From NCBI RefSeq assembly GCF_054482595.1, contig NZ_CM137008.1: a stretch of DNA of 64,000 nt, one strand, 5' to 3'. Every line of letters starts with the position of its first letter. Positions within the stretch are counted from its first letter, which is position 1. The notes beneath the pieces were generated by a model. It ran no database searches, had not been told where the DNA came from, and saw only the letters and a list, made by a program, of their open reading frames with translations. Positions 15,613 to 52,417 of this stretch are shown here, one piece after another. Position numbers and translations under genes: made by a program.

Positions 15613-17709
15613 TTAGCGGAAATTGACGCTACGGTCGCTGGTCATGTCATACAACTGGAACTTACGCCCAAGTTGCTGACCACCGTCACGCGTCAGCGGC
15701 GTCCAGCCAATCGCCGCACGGCTGCGTGTCGGGCCAGACGAGAAGAGATCCAACGGTACCGAGACATACACGCCCTTGGTGAAGTCCCCTTCGCCGTACT
15801 CCTCTTTCGAAACGTTGGTGATCGTGGCATAGCCGCCCACCACCACGCCGCTGTCAAAGCGTTTAGCGATCTCCAGCGTGCCGCCTTTATCCCCTGCCAG
15901 ATACTGCCCGACGCTGGCTTTAACTAACACATCCTGAGCGAAAGATGGCGTCCAGTAGGCGGTCAGATGTCCGGTTTTCACGCTGTAGTCGGTGAATTTC
16001 ATCATATCCTTTGCACTACGCCAGTCGCGCTGTTTAACGTAGTTGGCATCCAGACCAAACGCCCAGTTGCTGTCCAGCGGGCGATACAACACTTCTGCCC
16101 CCGCACCGCCAAACATGGTTTCGAGATAACCTCCGTAGACCTGACCGTAGAAGCCGTTGCCCAGATGCTGGAAGTAGTTGGCTTGCAGGTTATTCACATA
16201 GACATCGTTCTGCACATACTCGCGCACATGGGTACGAACGCGCGGTAAGTGCGAGTCCTGCGGCGGATTGGTGTAGTTAAACTTGTCGTAGTTGTTGGCA
16301 AGATTTGCAAACAGGCTGCCGGTGGTGAGCAGATGGTCCGTCAGCCACAAATCTGCCGTTCCCATCACGCCCAGCTGATACATGTAAAAGTTTTCCGGGC
16401 CACCGACCGACTGGTTCAGCACCGGATCGATATGGAAATCAAAGCGCGATTTGTCGATATACCAGCCCTGCTCGGTGGACTGCGGAACCACTGGCTCGAC
16501 GCGTTTTTGCGCCAGCTTCGTTTCGTGGCCCAACGGCTCTCCGGCGAGATGATTTTTCAGGCTGGCGACATCCGTTTCCGTGGTCACCTGCGGCATGTTA
16601 AGGCGATTTTCCGTAACGCGGATCGTCTTGATCCCATCCGGCAGATCATTCATCACGATCCGATTAGCACGGATGATCCCTTCGCGCGAATCACGATATT
16701 TCACCTGCTCGCCGGTAACATACAGCGTATCGCCTTTCGCCTGGATCTGTGGATCGGCAAGTCCGGCATTGTATTTCAACAGCGTTAACTGATTCGCTAC
16801 CACCGAATGCTGCAAAATGGCATCCTGCGGCTGCGGTTGATATTGCGGGCGGGCGTTATCGTTGTAAGGCGGGCGCAGATCGTTAAAGTTGGTGCGCAAC
16901 GTAACGCCAAACATAAAGGTGTTGCCACGTTCATAGCTAAGGTTAACGTCGGCCCAATCGGTAACGCGATAAATCGCACCGACGTTAAACTTACTTTTTT
17001 GCTCCAGCTTCCCGGCAAAATCCTGCTGATAATTATTGCCTTCATACTCCAGTTTCAGGCGCAGCGGTTGCCAGGGCGTCTGGTATTCCACGCCGCCAAA
17101 CAGTGAGGCAGGACCGTGGAACATCTGGCTACCGTCGATAGATCCCGCCTGTTTGTAGCTGTTATCGCGATAGCAATATTTATCACTGGCTGAACAGAGC
17201 GGATTTTTCACATTACCGCTGGTGCCCAGATATCCCCAGCCCAGGCCGAGCGTAAAATCGAACGGCCCCCAGGCTTTGCTGGCAACAAGATATTCCGCAT
17301 CAAACAGCCCCGTACCGCCGATATCCCGCGCACCAACCGCCACTTGCGGCAGCCAATAACTCTCTTCCCACAAACGCAGTTTGAGATCGAAGGCTTTATC
17401 TTTATACGTTTGATCGCCAGAGAACGCTTCGACGCTGCTGTACTGCCGGGTGCGCACGTCGGTGTAGCGCAGCGTTGTTTCCAGCCACGGGAAGAGTTGC
17501 ACTGAAGCTGAGTAATAACGGTACTGATCGTTATCGCGATAGTTCAGACTCAACTCCCCTTCCCGTGCCATACGCGCGGTGGGCGTTTGTAATAATCCTA
17601 CGCCACCGAAATCCGACTGCGACGGACCAATGGGCGCAGGATATGTTTCGCCGTAGCAAGCTGTGCTAATGCCCAGCGCCAGTAAGCTAAGCAGATGTCT
17701 TTTTTTCAT
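15613..17709 (-). CDS. yjbH: Outer-membrane protein of the yjbEFGH exopolysaccharide operon (GfcD paralogue)
   Basis: 698 aa; signal peptide with lipobox-like LGISTAC; last gene of yjbEFGH; start overlaps the yjbG stop (TAATG). Confidence 0.9.
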
Positions 17710-18446
17710 TATTGAGGTATCCGCTGCGTCAGAGTCTGAAGAATGTCGGCGTTAAGGGCATCAGGCGTCTCACTCCAGACGGAGTCCGCGAGGCCAACAT
17801 AAATAATGCTGCCGGGCATCGGCTCTACGTGACGCTTGTTCCAGTAAGCCACCGGCGCTTTTTGCGTGCGTCCGTCCGGGTAAACCACCCACGCGTAGCT
17901 GCGATCCGCACCGCTGAGCAGGCTCTGGTCAGAGAGATAGCTCGCCACGTCGCGACCTGGAGTGAATGGCTGCTTGCCAGGACGGCTGATAAGCCCGAAC
18001 AACGTGACCGTGGACGGCGGTGGTCCGACCCACAGCGTGTAGTTGCCCTGCAACGGCGGGTTACCGCGTTCGGCAACGCGGACGATATCGGGATCAAGAT
18101 TGATTTTTTGCCTGCCCGTCACTTTCAACGCCTGAATTTGCTGGCGTAAGGCGTTAATCGCAGCGGCATCGTCGGCGCTGGAATCTGCGCCCTGTTCTGC
18201 CAGCTGTGTCAGCAACGCCTGCTGCTGACGCAATGCTGCCGCCGTTGCCAGCTCTTCGCTAATCACCGCACCAGGCCACCAGCTGTTTGCCAGCCGTGGT
18301 TGGCCTACCAGATCGATTAAATGCTCTGCACCCGTCAGCGTTTTGGCCTCACTGCTGCCATTGCTGAATACCTTGACGGTTCCTGCCGCGAAGACCGATG
18401 ACGCCCCCACACTCAAAATCAATGCGACAATAGTTTGTTTAATCAT
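17709..18446 (-). CDS. yjbG: Exopolysaccharide operon periplasmic protein
   Basis: Track ORF 277 aa; start [20 protein letters not shown] (ATG 18444-18446) gives 245 aa; 4-nt ATGA overlap with yjbF. Confidence 0.85.
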
Positions 18447-19081
18447 TGTTTTGCCGCCTTGATGAGAGTGGTTTTCACCGGGAAATAATCTGCGCCGAGA
18501 TACTGTTCCGACTGGCGAATTTGCCCTTCGCTGTCGATCCAATAGCGGTTATGCCAGCGCGCCTGGTCGGTGGAGACTTCTTCGTCCAGCACGCGAACCG
18601 CGGTTTCATCGCTGCCGACCTTAACGGTACCGGTGCCATCCCATTTGAAGACTGAGCGTGCGGTGGCGTAGCGTACCTGCTGGTACTCGGTCCAGCCCAT
18701 CGTGCGCATCCAGGTTGCGCCATCAATGATTTGTGCGGGTTTAATCAGCGGGTCGGCGGCAAGGTTATTCACTTCAATCAGGTTGTCGCCGCCAAGCAAA
18801 GTCTTCACCAGACGACCATGTTGTGTGACGAGAGTAGCCTGATCCTGAGTGACCCATTTTTGTTGTCCGTCTTCAGCGAAGGCCAGCACCACAAATAACT
18901 GCGGCCCGCCATTAAGCTGCATGTACTGGCTGGCGTAGGGCATATTTTGAATATCATCATCCGTCAGCTGTACGCCTGGCGTACCGAACAGACTGTCCCA
19001 CAGTGAATTGCCCAGCTCTTTCGTCGTGGCTGAACAGGCCTGTAATAGCAGGCAGATAAGAATGAATGCAGGTCGCTTCAC
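18443..19081 (-). CDS. yjbF: Exopolysaccharide operon lipoprotein
   Basis: Lipobox LLQAC; probable GTG start at 19079-19081 with GGAGAA ribosome-binding site gives 212 aa (the track ORF extends 10 codons upstream). Confidence 0.8.
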   Translation of the reverse strand: MKRPAFILICLLLQACSATTKELGNSLWDSLFGTPGVQLTDDDIQNMPYASQYMQLNGGPQLFVVLAFAEDGQQKWVTQDQATLVTQHGRLVKTLLGGDNLIEVNNLAADPLIKPAQIIDGATWMRTMGWTEYQQVRYATARSVFKWDGTGTVKVGSDETAVRVLDEEVSTDQARWHNRYWIDSEGQIRQSEQYLGADYFPVKTTLIKAAKQ

Positions 19082-19194
19082 GACTCTTCTCCAGAGGGGC
19101 AGAATAACCACACCGGAGTGTGGTTATGGTAAATCCCTTCATACTTCTAGCCACAGATGCAATGACTCGAATTATTTTGGGGATACATACTTTA

Positions 19195-19437
19195 TTACTG
19201 GGTACTGGTGGTTGTGGTTGTTGTGGTCCCGGTATTAGAACCATCACCGCCACCGGTTGCCGCGAGCGCGACACCCACCGCCGAGCTTACGGTGCTGACG
19301 CTGGTCGCGGAGGAACTCCCCGCCGAAACCGACGTTGCTGCCGACCCTGCCGCTTCGCCCACCTGTACAGGTGCAGCCCACGCAGAAGTCGCCGCAAGCG
19401 CAGATATGGCAAAAATGCCATACAGAACTTTTTTCAT
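19195..19437 (-). CDS. yjbE: Small secreted Ser/Thr/Gly/Ala-rich protein
   Basis: 80 aa; signal peptide [21 protein letters not shown] then a low-complexity S/A/T/G region ending in a T7 run ([10 protein letters not shown]). Confidence 0.85.
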
Positions 19438-19844
19438 AACAATTTCCCTTCATTGAATGAATGGAGATTTACCCAAAAACATTTCGGGCGGGATCGAGTA
19501 TACACAACTAAAGCATACGAATTACGGCGCGGGGAATTAGCGATGGCGTTTTAGGATAATTGGAATGAATATCAAATATAAGTTTCAACTTATATTTAAA
19601 TAACAATAAAAATCATAAACTTAAAATAAAAACAAAAGTAATTAATCTGCGTATTTTCCGAAATAAACAACGATTAAAAATCTATTTTAGGATTAACCTC
19701 ACGGTATGATTTCCGTTAAATCACAGACAAGGGGATTTATCTGATAAAACAATGCCGACATAACGTCGGCATTGTTATTAAGGTTATTTAATCAATCGTG
19801 CTATGCATTAATTGCCGAATACGATGTACATATCGGCATCGACC

Positions 19845-19940
<96 letters not shown>

Positions 19941-19949
19941 GAACGATGA

Positions 19950-21599
19950 TTAACCGCGCCACGCTTTATAGCGGTTAATCAGACCATTGGTCGAGCTATC
20001 GTGGCTGCTGATTTCTTTATCATCTTTCAGCTCTGGCAGAATACGGTTCGCCAGCTGTTTACCCAGTTCCACGCCCCACTGGTCGAAGGTGAAGATGTTC
20101 AGGATCACGCCCTGAGTAAAGATTTTGTGCTCATACAGCGCAATCAACGCACCCAGGCTGAACGGAGTGATTTCACGCAGCAGGATGGAGTTGGTCGGGC
20201 GGTTACCTTCGAACACTTTGAACGGCACCACGTAGTCAAGCGTTGCCGGATCTTTACCCTGATCGCGATATTCCTGCTCAACCACTTCGCGGGATTTACC
20301 AAACGCCAGCGCTTCGGTCTGGGCAAAGAAGTTAGACAGCAGTTTCTGGTGATGATCAGAGAGCGGGTTATGGGTGATAGCCGGGGCGATGAAATCGCAC
20401 GGTACCATTTTAGTTCCCTGGTGGATCAGCTGGTAGAACGCGTGCTGACCGTTAGTACCTGGTTCCCCCCAGATAATCGGGCCAGTCTGGTAATCCACAA
20501 CATTACCGTTACGGTCAACATACTTACCGTTGGATTCCATATTGCCCTGCTGGAAGTACGCCGCGAAACGGTGCATATACTGGTCATACGGCAGAATCGC
20601 TTCAGTTTCCGCACCAAAGAAATTGTTGTACCAGATGCCAATCAGCGCCAGCAAGACAGGCAGGTTTTTCTCGGCAGGCGTGGTGGAGAAATGCTTGTCC
20701 ATCGCGTGTGCGCCAGAAAGCAGTTCAACGAAGTTATCAAAGCCGATGGAGAGAACAATCGACAGGCCAATCGCTGACCACAAAGAGTAACGGCCGCCGA
20801 CCCAGTCCCAGAACTCGAACATGTTGGCAGTATCAATACCAAACTCGCCAACGGCTTTGGCATTGGTTGAGAGCGCCGCAAAGTGTTTCGCAACGTGTTT
20901 TTCATCACCTGCCGCTTTCAGGAACCAGTCACGCGCGCTATGGGCGTTGGTCATGGTTTCCTGAGTGGTGAAGGTTTTAGATGCTACCAGGAACAGCGTG
21001 GTTTCCGGGTTTACTTTTTTCAGCACTTCCGCGATGTGAGTCCCATCGACGTTAGAAACAAAGTGCATGTTCAGGTGATTTTTGTACGGACGCAGTGCTT
21101 CGGTCACCATGTACGGGCCGAGGTCAGAACCACCGATCCCGATGTTCACTACGTCAGTGATTGCTTTGCCGGTATAACCCTTCCACTCACCGGAGATAAT
21201 CGCTTCCGAGAAGGCTTTCATCTTCTCCAGCACCGCGTTGACTTCCGGCATTACGTCTTTGCCATCAACCAGAATCGGGGTATTGCTACGGTTACGCAGC
21301 GCTACGTGCAGCACGGCGCGGTTTTCAGTGCGGTTGATCTTCTCGCCAGAGAACATCGACTTAATCGCGCCCGCCAGATCGCACTCTTTCGCCAGATCTT
21401 GTAATTTCGCCAGCGTCTCTTCAGTGATGCGGTTTTTGGAGTAATCCACCAGCATCTGATCGTCGAAGGTTGCGGAGAACTTAGAAAAACGATCGCCGTC
21501 TTTAGCAAAAAGATCGGCGATCGTAACGTCTTTCATTTCATCGAAGTGTTTCTGTAGTGCCTGCCAGGCAGCGGTCTGCGTTGGATTGATGTTTTTCAT
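19950..21599 (-). CDS. pgi: Glucose-6-phosphate isomerase
   Basis: Pgi N-terminus [15 protein letters not shown] at codon 3 of the track ORF gives 549 aa; conserved PGI motifs. Confidence 0.97.
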
Positions 21600-21839
21600 T
21601 AGCAATACTCTTCTGATTTTGAGAATTGTGACTTTGGAAGATTGTAGCGCCAGTCACAGAAAAATGTGATGGTTTTAGTGCCGTTAGCGTAATGTTGAGT
21701 GTAAACCCTTAGCGCAGTGAAGCATTTATTAGCTGAACTACTGACCGCCAGGAGTGGATGAAAAATCCGCATGACCCCGTCGTTGACAACCGCCCCGCTC
21801 ACCCTTTATTTATAAATGTACTACCTGCGCTAGCGCAGG

Positions 21840-22110
21840 CCAGAAGAGGCGCGTTGCCCAAGTAACGGTGTTGGAGGAGCCAGTCCTGTGATAACACCTG
21901 AGGGGGTGCATCGCCGAGGTGATTGAACGGCTGGCCACGTTCATCATCGGCTACAGGGGCTGAATCCCCTGGGTTGTCACCAGAAGCGTTCGCAGTCGGG
22001 CGTTTCGCAAGTGGTGGAGCACTTCTGGGTGAAAATAGTAGCGAAGTATCGCTCTGCGCCCACCCGTCTTCCGCTCTTCCCTTGTGCCAAGGCTGAAAAT
22101 GGATCCCCTG
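21840..22110 (+). promoter_or_regulatory. Lysine riboswitch (LYS element) in the lysC leader
   Basis: Long structured 5' leader directly upstream of lysC with the GAGGCGC...GGTG...GGGG elements typical of the lysC lysine riboswitch; a TTGACA -35 box lies at 21783-21788. Confidence 0.75.
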
Positions 22111-38783: not shown

Positions 38784-39099
38784 CTTTTTCTGGCGGGCAG
38801 AGGCAATATTCTGCCCATCATACCTGAGTGGCAATAGAATAAGGGTGTCTGTTAATCGCATTGACGCCAAAATAACTTAATGTCATACACTTCACACACT
38901 TTTATTAACTCAGCATTATTTTTAAACATCAAACCACTTAATCATTAACAAAATCGCAAGATCTCATTCCACCGAAACTTTTACGGCTGCATTATGAGAT
39001 TGAGCGATTTATGATATTTCTTTACTTGTAATCATATTAAATTTTTTCACTGTTCTGATAGTTAAAATTCAAGACATCAATAAACAATGAGATATTTAA

Positions 39100-40316
39100 A
39101 TGATTACTCGTATCCCTCGTAGTTCTTTCTCTGCAAATATTAATAATACAGCCCAGACAAATGAACACCAAACCCTGAGTGAATTGTTTTATAAAGAACT
39201 CGAGGATAAATTTTCTGGCAAGGAGCTGGCGACGCCTCTATTAAAAAGCTTCTCAGAGAACTGTAGACAAAATGGTCGTCATATCTTTAGCAACAAGGAT
39301 TTTGTCATTAAATTTTCCACGTCCGTCTTACAAGCTGATAAGAAAGAAATTACGATAATTAATAAAAATGAAAACACGACACTCACTCAAACCATTGCTC
39401 CAATATTTGAAGAATACCTAATGGAAATTTTACCTCAACGCTCAGACACTCTTGATAAACAAGAATTAAACCTAAACTCAGTTAGAAAAGAAAAAGAATT
39501 CCCAAGAGTTAAACTTAATGATCAATGTTATTTTCCGGGGCGCCCCCAAAACCGTATAGTATGCCGACACATTGCTGCACAATATATTAATGATATTTAT
39601 CAGAATGTTGATTACAAACCCCATCAAGATGATTACTCTTCAGCTGAAAAATTTCTCACGCACTTCAACAAAAAATGCAAAAACCAGACTTTGGCGTTGG
39701 TTTCCAGCCGTCCTGAGGGGCGTTGCGTTGCTGCCTGCGGTGATTTCGGGCTAGTTATGAAAGCATATTTTGACAAGATGGAATCAAATGGCATCAGTGT
39801 TATGGCAGCCATATTACTGGTGGATAACCATGCTTTGACGGTCCGGCTAAGAATAAAGAACACAACTGAAGGATGTACCCATTACGTGGTTTCGGTTTAT
39901 GATCCTAATGTCACTAACGATAAAATAAGAATTATGAGCGAAAGCAAAGAGGATATTAAACACTATTCTCTGATGGATTTTATGAATGTAGATTATAGCC
40001 TCCTGAAATGGTCAAATGATCATATTATTAACCAATCTGTTGCAATAATTCCAGCACTTCCGAAAGAACAGCTATTGATGTTAAAAGGATCTGTGGATGA
40101 AATAACCCCTCCATTATCACCTGCAACGATGAATTTGCTAATGGCAATTGGTCAGAATCACCAACTTACGCAACTGATGATTCAACTCCAGAAAATGCCA
40201 GAACTACATAGAACAGAAATGTTGACTGCCTATAATAGTGGACATATGAACGTTATTAATACTATTTTTAACGCATTACCCACTCTTTTTAATACGTTTA
40301 AATTCGATAAAAAAAT

Positions 40317-42406: not shown

Positions 42407-42540
42407 GCCGGATGCGGCGTAAACGCCTTATCCAGCCTACGTTCGGCAACGGTTGTAGGCATGATAAGACGCGCAAGCGTCGCATCAGGCATCGTGCACC
42501 GATTGCCGGATGCGGCGTAAATGCCTTATCCGGCCTACAG
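42407..42540. repeat. REP/BIME cluster between aceA and aceK
   Basis: Three or four REP palindromes (TGCCGGATGCGGCGTAAACGCCTTATCCAGCCTAC...). Confidence 0.75.
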
Positions 42541-47406: not shown

Positions 47407-47526
47407 ATGCCTGGCAGTTCCCTACTCTCGCATGGGGAGACCCCACACTACCATCGGCGCTACGGCGTTTCACTTCTGAGTTCGGCATGGGGTCAGGTGG
47501 GACCACCGCGCTAAGGCCGCCAGGCA
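47407..47526 (-). rRNA. rrfE: 5S ribosomal RNA
   Basis: 120-nt reverse-complement match to E. coli 5S rRNA (TGCCTGGCGGCC...GGAACTGCCAGGCAT). Confidence 0.98.
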
Positions 47527-47618
47527 AATTCTGTTTTATCAGACCGCTTCTGCGTTCTGATTTAATCTGTATCAGGCTGAAAATCTTCTCTCATCCGCCA
47601 AAACATCTTCGGCGTTGT

Positions 47619-50521
<2,903 letters not shown>

Positions 50522-50714
50522 TCACAACCCGAAGATGTTTCTTTCGATTCATCATCGTGTTGCGAAAATTTGAGAGACTCACGAACAACTCTCGTTGTTC
50601 AGTGTTTCAATTTTCAGCTTGATCCAGATTTTTAAAGAGCAAATATCTCAAACATCACCCGAAGATGAGTTTTGAGATATTAAGGTCGGCGACTTTCACT
50701 CACAAACCAGCAAG

Positions 50715-50790
50715 TGGCGTCCCCTAGGGGATTCGAACCCCTGTTACCGCCGTGAAAGGGCGGTGTCCTGGGCCTCTAGACGAAGGGGAC
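50715..50790 (-). tRNA. gltV: tRNA-Glu (anticodon UUC) in the 16S-23S spacer
   Basis: Reverse complement equals GTCCCCTTCGTCTAGAGGCCCAGGACACCGCCCTTTCACGGCGGTAACAGGGGTTCGAATCCCCTAGGGGACGCCA. Confidence 0.97.
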
Positions 50791-50875
50791 GTATCAGTCT
50801 GCTTCGCAAGACGCCTTGCTTTTCACTTTCTATCAGACAATCTGTGTGAGCACTTCAAAGAACGCTTCTTTAAGG

Positions 50876-52417
<1,542 letters not shown>

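Follow-up and report, generated by a model that had tools for sequence, protein, structure and literature searches.

The yjbEFGH operon of Escherichia coli and its control region, located downstream of pgi, were analysed in a 64,000-nucleotide (nt) stretch of DNA from NCBI RefSeq assembly GCF_054482595.1, contig NZ_CM137008.1 (hereafter the window). The run of seven threonines near the C-terminus of YjbE, the small protein encoded by the first gene, was found to be fixed in length across strains and genera while its codons are scrambled, and this pattern argues for strong purifying selection on the protein tail. The best explanation of the locus as a whole, to which we assign a probability of about 0.75, is that of an Rcs-controlled yjbEFGH operon with a corresponding leader layout, in which YjbE is a client of the YjbFGH machine and the length of its threonine run is fixed. 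Nothing in the finding itself is new: the operon and its control by Rcs, the paralogy to gfcABCD and the STnc430 candidate in the leader have all been recorded before.

The locus is the known yjbEFGH operon with its control region. A segment of 811 bases comprising the end of pgi, the spacer and yjbE was 100% identical to E. coli strain XH990 and shared 95-99% identity with most of the 5,426 complete E. coli genomes, in which it is annotated as pgi and yjbE. RefSeq annotation of yjbEFGH was present at the locus in 5,420 of the 5,426 genomes. The minus strand of the window is the coding strand for pgi, yjbE, yjbF, yjbG and yjbH, which follow each other in this order, and the four family models of Pfam were matched far above their cut-offs (Table 1). 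The gene identities given in the original prediction, which was made from the sequence alone, were thereby confirmed by Pfam and by the annotation under the 100% match, but its span of 17709-19800 for the four genes left yjbH outside. YjbF matched the structure 2IN5 (YmcC/GfcB, E 5e-42) and YjbG matched 3P42 (GfcC, E 7e-56) in the Protein Data Bank, and YjbH was 65% identical to GfcD, in agreement with the predicted paralogy to the genes of the group 4 capsule operon. Judged from its gene content, the locus is a paralogue of gfcABCD and not the group 4 capsule operon, since no gfcE-etp-etk follows yjbH, only yjbT on the opposite strand.

The threonine run of YjbE

YjbE had been described as an 80-residue, secreted protein of low complexity, which agreed with the predicted signal peptide and with a mature part made up to 88% of Ser, Thr, Gly, Ala and Val. 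The N-terminus has, as read by eye, the basic N-region, hydrophobic core and small-x-small site of a Sec-type cleavable signal. The protein had also been said to end in seven threonines. Seven consecutive threonines (T7) are indeed present, but Ser-Thr-Gln comes after them and the C-terminus is NTG-T7-STQ. Triplet repeats had been placed at 19198-19245, but the Thr codons span 19207-19227 only, and Tandem Repeats Finder reported a weak 22-nt repeat in the tract (period 9, score 37). The protein is identical to WP_000757333.1 of K-12-like, O157:H7 and APEC O1 strains. AlphaFold2 gave no confident fold (mean predicted local distance difference test score, pLDDT, 47.8).

Population counts were obtained from the spans of BLAST alignments of a 283-nt query to the 5,426 complete E. 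coli genomes. yjbE was found in 5,420 of them, always with at least 97.9% identity, and the length of YjbE was identical in approximately 98% of these 5,420. When 60 genomes were sampled evenly down the ranking, 57 displayed no length change and the other three had a 1-nt deletion, an insertion of IS1 (an insertion sequence) and a 6-nt insertion. The last is a duplication of ACAACC leading to nine threonines (T9), and this allele (82 amino acids (aa), WP_021575443.1) was present in 85 of the 5,420 genomes, or about 1.6%. The best 25 of the 85 T9 genomes were 100% identical over 289 nt, and T9 therefore apparently represents one lineage. One T9 carrier is the strain named ST361. Among seven E. 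coli sequences from different lineages, yjbE was 243 nt in all and six of the seven proteins were identical, with Thr codons that differed synonymously.

The comparison was extended to sequences from 78 species of Enterobacteriaceae, located via YjbF. Exactly seven threonines were present in 74 of 79 sequences (the 78 species and the window), and the codon strings that encode them numbered more than 45; in the Kluyvera group, T5-S-T3 stood in place of T7. The Thr codons were a mixture of ACC, ACA and ACG and did not form homogeneous repeat units. Residues 52-80 had a mean identity of 0.967, compared to 0.84 in the N-terminal part of the mature protein and 0.82 in the signal peptide, and YjbF identity across the compared species ranged from 63 to 96%. 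By these values the C-terminal module ending in T7-STQ is the best-conserved part of YjbE.

Among 1.8 billion representative proteins, a profile search yielded 36 members of the YjbE family only. Distant members follow a common plan of a signal peptide, GEAAG, a hydrophobic Gly/Ala/Val/Leu stretch, GGGDGS(N)TG, a Thr run, often of exactly seven, and ST(T)R/Q. Many of them keep GDGS(N)TG-T7, including representatives whose pairwise identity is below 50%. The fixed length of the tail across genera and in these distant homologues suggests that YjbE and its paralogue GfcA act as specific functional partners. The tail, although of "low complexity", is the most constrained part of YjbE, and its fixed length across genera makes it an easy handle for mutagenesis.

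Strain-to-strain variation in repeat number, as originally proposed, was essentially refuted as a common phenomenon by the approximately 98% of E. coli genomes of equal length, the single T9 allele and the 74 of 79 sequences with T7. From the conservation of length under scrambled codons, the fixed run would reflect a functional requirement and not a slippage-driven variable. The opposite reading, in which the Thr codons are a slippage-prone repeat that varies tail length and the leader is a silenced promoter of the H-NS type, is very improbable. The T9 allele speaks for slippage, as does a 9-bp in-frame insertion in yjbE that arose in experimental evolution (PMC8540638). On the other side stand the uniform length in E. 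coli, the likely descent of the best 25 T9 genomes from one lineage, codons scrambled so that repeat homogeneity is broken, and the low repeat score of 37. Slippage in the run can happen but is rare. The 9-bp insertion was named as a candidate cause of mucoidy in a clone evolved under predation (PMC8540638); its position within yjbE is not given in that paper, and the phenotype would fit a length requirement.

A few other forms of yjbE were seen. IS1A lies inside yjbE in E. coli EC25, leaving a pseudogene fragment and a shortened open reading frame (ORF), and YjbE of Shigella dysenteriae is truncated to 74 aa. A protein search by word index, with YjbE as the query, yielded nothing but singletons that were frameshifted, truncated or erroneous, and these were of no use for tail-length statistics. 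Antisense ORFs over yjbE, such as that at 19208-19456 on the plus strand (82 aa), were rejected as by-products of a GC-rich, repetitive coding sequence.

The AT-rich leader and its conserved sites

The region 19440-19800 upstream of yjbE had been predicted to have less than 30% GC. It is strongly AT-rich, with a core of 23.5% GC at 19550-19749, but its overall content is 31.9% (29.9% for 19500-19800). The core is the lowest-GC 200-bp segment in the 64 kb, where 1% of 200-bp segments fall below 30%. Two more low-GC stretches, comparable to or longer than the yjbE leader, occur at 3629-4577 and 38867-39618, with 350-bp segments of 28.6-29.7% GC and 200-bp minima of 24.5-26.5%.

An alignment of 78 sequences, covering 360 nt upstream of yjbE, displayed the AT-rich trough in all 78 species (minimum 150-bp GC 0.17-0.31). 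The leader was conserved in discrete sequence blocks and not in composition alone. The low GC of the core is what the silenced-promoter half of the slippage reading would lead one to expect. Against it, much of the leader is conserved in sequence, beyond composition, and the H-NS nucleation motif TCGATAAATT had no match with up to two mismatches in 19440-19800, compared to 91 in the whole window. Silencing by nucleoid proteins, as originally suggested, may nonetheless take place, with the AT content as the observation that speaks for it.

The sequence GTTGTGTATACTCG, which contains the putative −10 element TATACT, was identical in nearly all 78 sequences and would place the yjbE transcription start near 19490. 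Changes in the 5′ untranslated region (UTR) that follows were confined to loops or to one side of a stem, including a CAAC insertion in loop B. A −10 without a good −35 leads one to expect an activator-dependent promoter, and the leader layout fits such a promoter and agrees with the documented dependence on RcsA and RcsB. According to the literature, the yjb operon is transcribed as one unit, RcsA-RcsB dependent and strongly induced by envelope damage, in line with the stress-activated operon of the original prediction. A reporter study places yjbE among the promoters scoring for the motif of an unidentified osmotic-stress activator, shared with yjbJ and ybaY (bioRxiv 10.1101/2025.05.13.653802).

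Three Rcs-type sites were noticed upstream of the −10, here called box 1, box 1′ and box 2 (Table 1). Box 1 is the sole match to TNAGNNNNNTCCTA in the window and conforms to the RcsAB 14-bp core of TaAGaatatTCctA. Its core positions T1, A3, G4, T10, C11 and A14 were invariant in 78 of 78 sequences, with variation at the non-core positions. It also fits the RcsB box, TN(G/A)GAN4TC(T/C)NA (PMC7913699), except at position 5. A search with the RcsAB consensus TAAGAATATTCCTA, allowing up to three mismatches, found no match in the leader; box 1 was missed because four of its eight non-core positions differ from the published consensus, and it came to light through a pattern restricted to the core and through conservation. 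In box 1′, TC..AAA was invariant in 71-75 of 75 sequences, and variation at its Y and K positions is independent of that in box 1. In box 2, T-C-Y-K-A-A-A was present in 76-78 of 78 sequences; its left half misfits the RcsAB core. The three are regarded as putative RcsA-RcsB sites. Recognisable regulatory motifs, in the form of an RcsAB-box-like site and a conserved −10, are thus present in the leader, where the original prediction had suggested a search for them.

The same blocks are covered on the opposite strand by a match to the Rfam family STnc430 (RF02053), which spans the whole model (positions 1-162) and, with 75.8 bits, exceeds the gathering score of 47. It is an unlikely alternative that the blocks at 19634-19783 are conserved as a small RNA, transcribed on the plus strand between the TAAAAT promoter and the shared terminator, and not for the regulation of yjbE. 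For this RNA speak the full-length match above the gathering score, a promoter-like site that ends 7 nt before the model, with TAWAAT at the place of its −10 in many species (alignment judged by eye, not counted), and the pgi terminator hairpin, which doubles on the plus strand as the 3′ hairpin of the model. The stem sequence of this hairpin changes across species (GCCGAC, GCCGGC, GCCGAT).

STnc430 was originally predicted by computation, for the pgi/yjbE spacer of Salmonella; its source study lists 0 cDNA reads for each of two libraries and 'np' in the Northern column, and no report of its expression was found in the literature searched. RNAalifold returned 0 consensus pairs for the region in 75 sequences. 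Both arms of the main stem contain invariant T-C-.-.-A-A-A, and the variable positions between pair in 49 of 75 and 19 of 75 sequences only; the commonest combination of arms, TCCTAAA with TTTCAGA, is non-complementary at these positions. Because the variable positions fail to pair, the pattern resembles independent protein half-sites and not an RNA helix, and the invariant positions match the RcsAB/RcsB core instead. Conservation of the STnc430 family would then be largely explained by Rcs-type DNA sites together with the pgi terminator, although the RNA and Rcs binding could coexist. As the conservation of the family looks more like protein-binding DNA than RNA structure, its annotation calls for caution.

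The yjbE-yjbF spacer and the possible role of YjbE

The four genes had been described as translationally coupled through ATGA and TAATG overlaps. These were read from the sequence at yjbF/yjbG (ATGA) and yjbG/yjbH (TAATG), but a hairpin-containing spacer of 113 nt lies between yjbE and yjbF. Stop/start overlaps in gfcB-C-D and homologous operons have been noted before (PMC8592465).

The spacer hairpin lies just 5′ of the yjbF ribosome-binding site and has four G-C pairs in its 10-bp stem. It was seen in the spacers of approximately 65 of the 78 species, in all of which the stem was unchanged and the loop alone varied (UUCG, UCCG, UACG, UGCG); for the remaining species the last 70 nt only were in view, a region without the hairpin. 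The tail 3′ of the hairpin is UUUU(G/C) in most species and UUCUG in E. coli. The predicted fold of the spacer (−37.4 kcal/mol, z = −2.87) was better than that of shuffled sequence. In most genera the spacer measured about 63 nt. It was longer in E. coli and some Citrobacter and Enterobacter, at about 113-122 nt, and reached 186 nt in E. coli strains with an insert resembling the enterobacterial repetitive intergenic consensus (ERIC). This ERIC-like element of about 73 nt is located upstream of the conserved hairpin in E. coli MS20657 and UID2309220007. A laboratory IS1 insertion in the yjbE-yjbF spacer sufficed to give more colanic acid and sedimentation resistance (PMC8117528), and the ERIC-like elements together with the laboratory IS1 insertions mark the spacer as an insertion hotspot.

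From its position and conservation we infer that the hairpin may act by attenuation or as a 3′ stabiliser and so uncouple the output of YjbE from that of YjbFGH. An invariant hairpin between yjbE and yjbFGH, in a layout common to gfc, points to different expression levels for the small protein and the machine. The setting apart of yjbE from yjbFGH by this spacer could account for the phenotypes of spacer insertions.

The polysaccharide affected by yjbEFGH is undefined in the literature, in agreement with the original prediction, which called the exported polysaccharide poorly defined. Mutations in the yjb operon have been linked in the literature to mucoidy, colanic-acid overproduction, or phage and predator resistance; yjb mutations occurred in mucoid clones evolved under predation (PMC8540638), and transposon mutants of yjbE, yjbF and yjbH were enriched under phage T4. 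Published fold assignments liken the N-terminal barrel of YjbH to FapF, an amyloid exporter, and its C-terminal barrel to PgaA, the porin for poly-N-acetylglucosamine (PNAG).

The proposed mechanism may be depicted as follows: envelope stress acts through the Rcs phosphorelay, and RcsA-RcsB turns on yjbEFGH, as established in the literature. Owing to the spacer hairpin, YjbE would be made in large excess over YjbFGH, either through partial termination or through stabilisation of a yjbE-only transcript, while YjbF, YjbG and YjbH would be made in a fixed ratio and form an outer-membrane machine. YjbE would be a client or partner of this machine, exported or held via the FapF-like half of YjbH, and might carry or organise polysaccharide. 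A broken machine or an altered YjbE would cause envelope stress and hence Rcs activation and colanic-acid mucoidy. Export of YjbE through YjbH is a proposal drawn from the likeness to known exporters.

Several observations weigh against this mechanism or parts of it. The T9 lineage shows that two additional threonines are tolerated in nature. Chance alone would be expected to produce the pattern of box 1 0.8 times in 64 kb, so that the weight given to the site comes from its conservation, and this conservation could partly serve the STnc430 candidate on the opposite strand. A simple sigma-70 scan found no minus-strand promoter, and the predicted fold of the 5′ UTR (−14.2 kcal/mol, z = −0.85) was no better than that of shuffled sequence. 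A terminator scan called no terminator, the spacer hairpin included. The UUCUG tail of this hairpin in E. coli is U-poor and makes a poor terminator tail, and the invariant stems offer no compensatory change in support of an RNA structure. Finally, the paralogue GfcA is named an inner-membrane protein by NCBI, and the hydrophobic segment of distant YjbE homologues is longer and could cross a membrane.

The last two points belong to a different explanation, in which YjbE is a scaffold or primer for polysaccharide assembly anchored in the inner membrane and YjbFGH exports glycan only. We consider it possible but doubtful. The NCBI product name of GfcA is 'threonine-rich inner membrane protein', the hydrophobic Gly/Ala/Val/Leu segment before the GDG-Thr tail comprises about 20 residues in distant homologues, AlphaFold2 drew a low-confidence helix at residues 44-60 of YjbE, and the C-terminal barrel of YjbH resembles a polysaccharide porin. 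The uncharged segment of YjbE itself, of about 10 residues, is too short for a bilayer, its N-terminus is a standard signal cleavable between AWA and A, and YjbH has an N-terminal barrel similar to a peptide exporter.

The reading of YjbE as a client of YjbFGH may be taken one step further. The hydrophobic-GDG-seven-Thr module of YjbE and GfcA would then serve for threading into, or docking to, the FapF-like barrel of YjbH and GfcD, and yjbEFGH would primarily be an export or anchoring system for a peptide or glycopeptide, with the spacer hairpin setting a large excess of YjbE. This extension is speculative and rather improbable; if true, it would explain Rcs activation and mucoidy from machine-defective or length-altered alleles. 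The heptathreonine module and the uncoupling hairpin are in either case handles on the uncharacterised YjbE/GfcA proteins.

Features of the window and relation to known systems

The coordinates of the features are collected in Table 1. The pgi-proximal spacer (19800-19949) holds a strain-variable cluster of repetitive extragenic palindromic (REP) sequences and bacterial interspersed mosaic elements (BIMEs), and about 1,400 E. coli genomes had no coverage of positions 1-170 of the query covering this spacer. IS200C is located between pgi and yjbE in strain GN06156. Three more REP-type naRNA4 matches above threshold were detected on the minus strand, at 5949-6019, 10178-10248 and 42458-42535. 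A lysine riboswitch (RF00168, 99.5 bits) at 21836-22032 on the plus strand lies in the lysC leader just beyond pgi, and a complete rRNA operon (16S, tRNA, 23S and 5S) occupies 47409-52417 on the minus strand, with a StyR-44 match in its 16S-23S spacer.

Table 1. Positions of the genes, sites and predicted elements at the yjbE locus of the window.
Feature	Position	Strand	Remarks
pgi	end at 19950	−	Upstream neighbour of yjbE
REP/BIME element, Rfam naRNA4 (RF02564)	19849-19920	−	81.3 bits, gathering score 59.5; just downstream of pgi
pgi terminator hairpin	19748-19776		AACAATGCCGAC-gttat-GTCGGCATTGTT; from sequence; conserved across species
Rfam STnc430 (RF02053) match	19634-19783	+	Candidate small RNA pointing away from yjbE; predicted only
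Box 1	19688-19701	−	TGAGGTTAATCCTA; RcsAB-box-like; about 200 bp upstream of inferred yjbE start
Box 1′	19648-19661	+	TGCGTATTTTCCGA; putative inverted Rcs-type site; one core mismatch (C at position 3)
Sigma-70-like site	19600-19627	+	ATAACA-16-TAAAAT; only promoter-like match of the scan
Box 2	19548-19565	−	Right half TCCTAAAA (19548-19556) alone conserved; centre about 68 bp upstream of inferred start
Putative yjbE −10	19497-19502	−	TATACT; no good −35 (GTAATT at 17-bp spacing)
Putative yjbE 5′ UTR	19438-19490	−	About 52 nt; near-invariant in 78 sequences
5′ UTR hairpins	19471-19489 (5′-proximal), 19445-19466	−	Second contains Shine-Dalgarno AAGGGA (19445-19450)
yjbE	19195-19437	−	80-aa preprotein; PF11106, E 5e-33
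YjbE signal peptide	19375-19437	−	Residues 1-21; predicted cleavage between AWA and AP, read by eye
Seven Thr codons	19207-19227	−	ACC ACA ACA ACC ACA ACC ACC; from sequence
yjbE-yjbF spacer	19082-19194	−	113 nt; genes not translationally coupled
Spacer hairpin	19104-19127	−	ATAACCACAC-tccg-GTGTGGTTAT; perfect 10-bp stem; putative attenuator or mRNA 3′ stabiliser
yjbF	18443-19081	−	GTG start; 212 aa; PF11102, E 9e-63
yjbF lipobox	19034-19048	−	LQAC; lipoprotein
yjbG	17709-18446	−	245 aa; PF20616 and PF06251 (GfcC N- and C-terminal domains)
yjbH	15613-17709	−	698-aa outer-membrane protein; PF06082, E 8e-271
yjbT	beyond yjbH	opposite to yjbH	Next gene

The closest known system is the yjbEFGH operon of strain K-12 (Ferrieres et al. 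2007, Microbiology 153:1070, as cited), which has the same locus and the same order pgi-yjbE-F-G-H-(yjbT). YjbE of the window is identical to that of K-12 (WP_000757333.1) and the leader is about 98% identical. Three synonymous changes separate the two yjbE genes, two of them inside Thr codons, and the REP content next to pgi differs.

The leader shares with RcsAB-box promoters (Wehland and Bernhard 2000; PMC7913699) the core T-AG-----TC--A, a promoter without a −35 and an RcsA-RcsB-dependent operon. Upstream of wza in K-12 this degenerate core is matched once, by TAAGAAATATCGCA. The yjb leader differs from the published box in its extra copies, the inverted box 1′ and the half-site box 2, and all its Rcs-type sites carry an AAA(A) extension that is not in the published box. 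The STnc430 match agrees with its family in the orthologous pgi/yjbE spacer, in the strand relative to the neighbouring genes and in its full length, but in E. coli 11 nt are missing from the central stem region.

In the Fap system a small, disordered secreted protein rich in Thr, Ser, Gly and Ala is, in outline, encoded beside a barrel of the FapF type. The two halves of YjbH have been likened by published fold recognition to FapF and PgaA, that is, to Fap and PNAG export. YjbE is far shorter than the Fap subunits, and the likeness is one of layout and not of compared subunit sequences.

The gfcABCD operon differs from yjbEFGH in the presence of gfcE-etp-etk (wza/wzb/wzc-type), which have no counterpart after yjbH, and in its exported polymer, which is O-antigen for gfc and undefined for yjb. 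In GfcA, of 101 aa, the Thr runs are interrupted, and the Pfam model for YjbE does not recognise the protein. The two operons are alike in their organisation: a small gene for a Thr-rich protein with a signal peptide comes first and is followed by about 100 nt of spacer, which includes a hairpin, and then come a lipoprotein, a protein of the GfcC fold and an outer-membrane protein with two barrels, joined by overlaps. In the gfc operon the gap after gfcA is 106 nt, with a hairpin, and the overlaps are ATGA and TGATG. YjbE and GfcA share the C-terminal module of a hydrophobic stretch, GDG, a Thr-rich segment and ST(Q/R), with GfcA ending in STTR.

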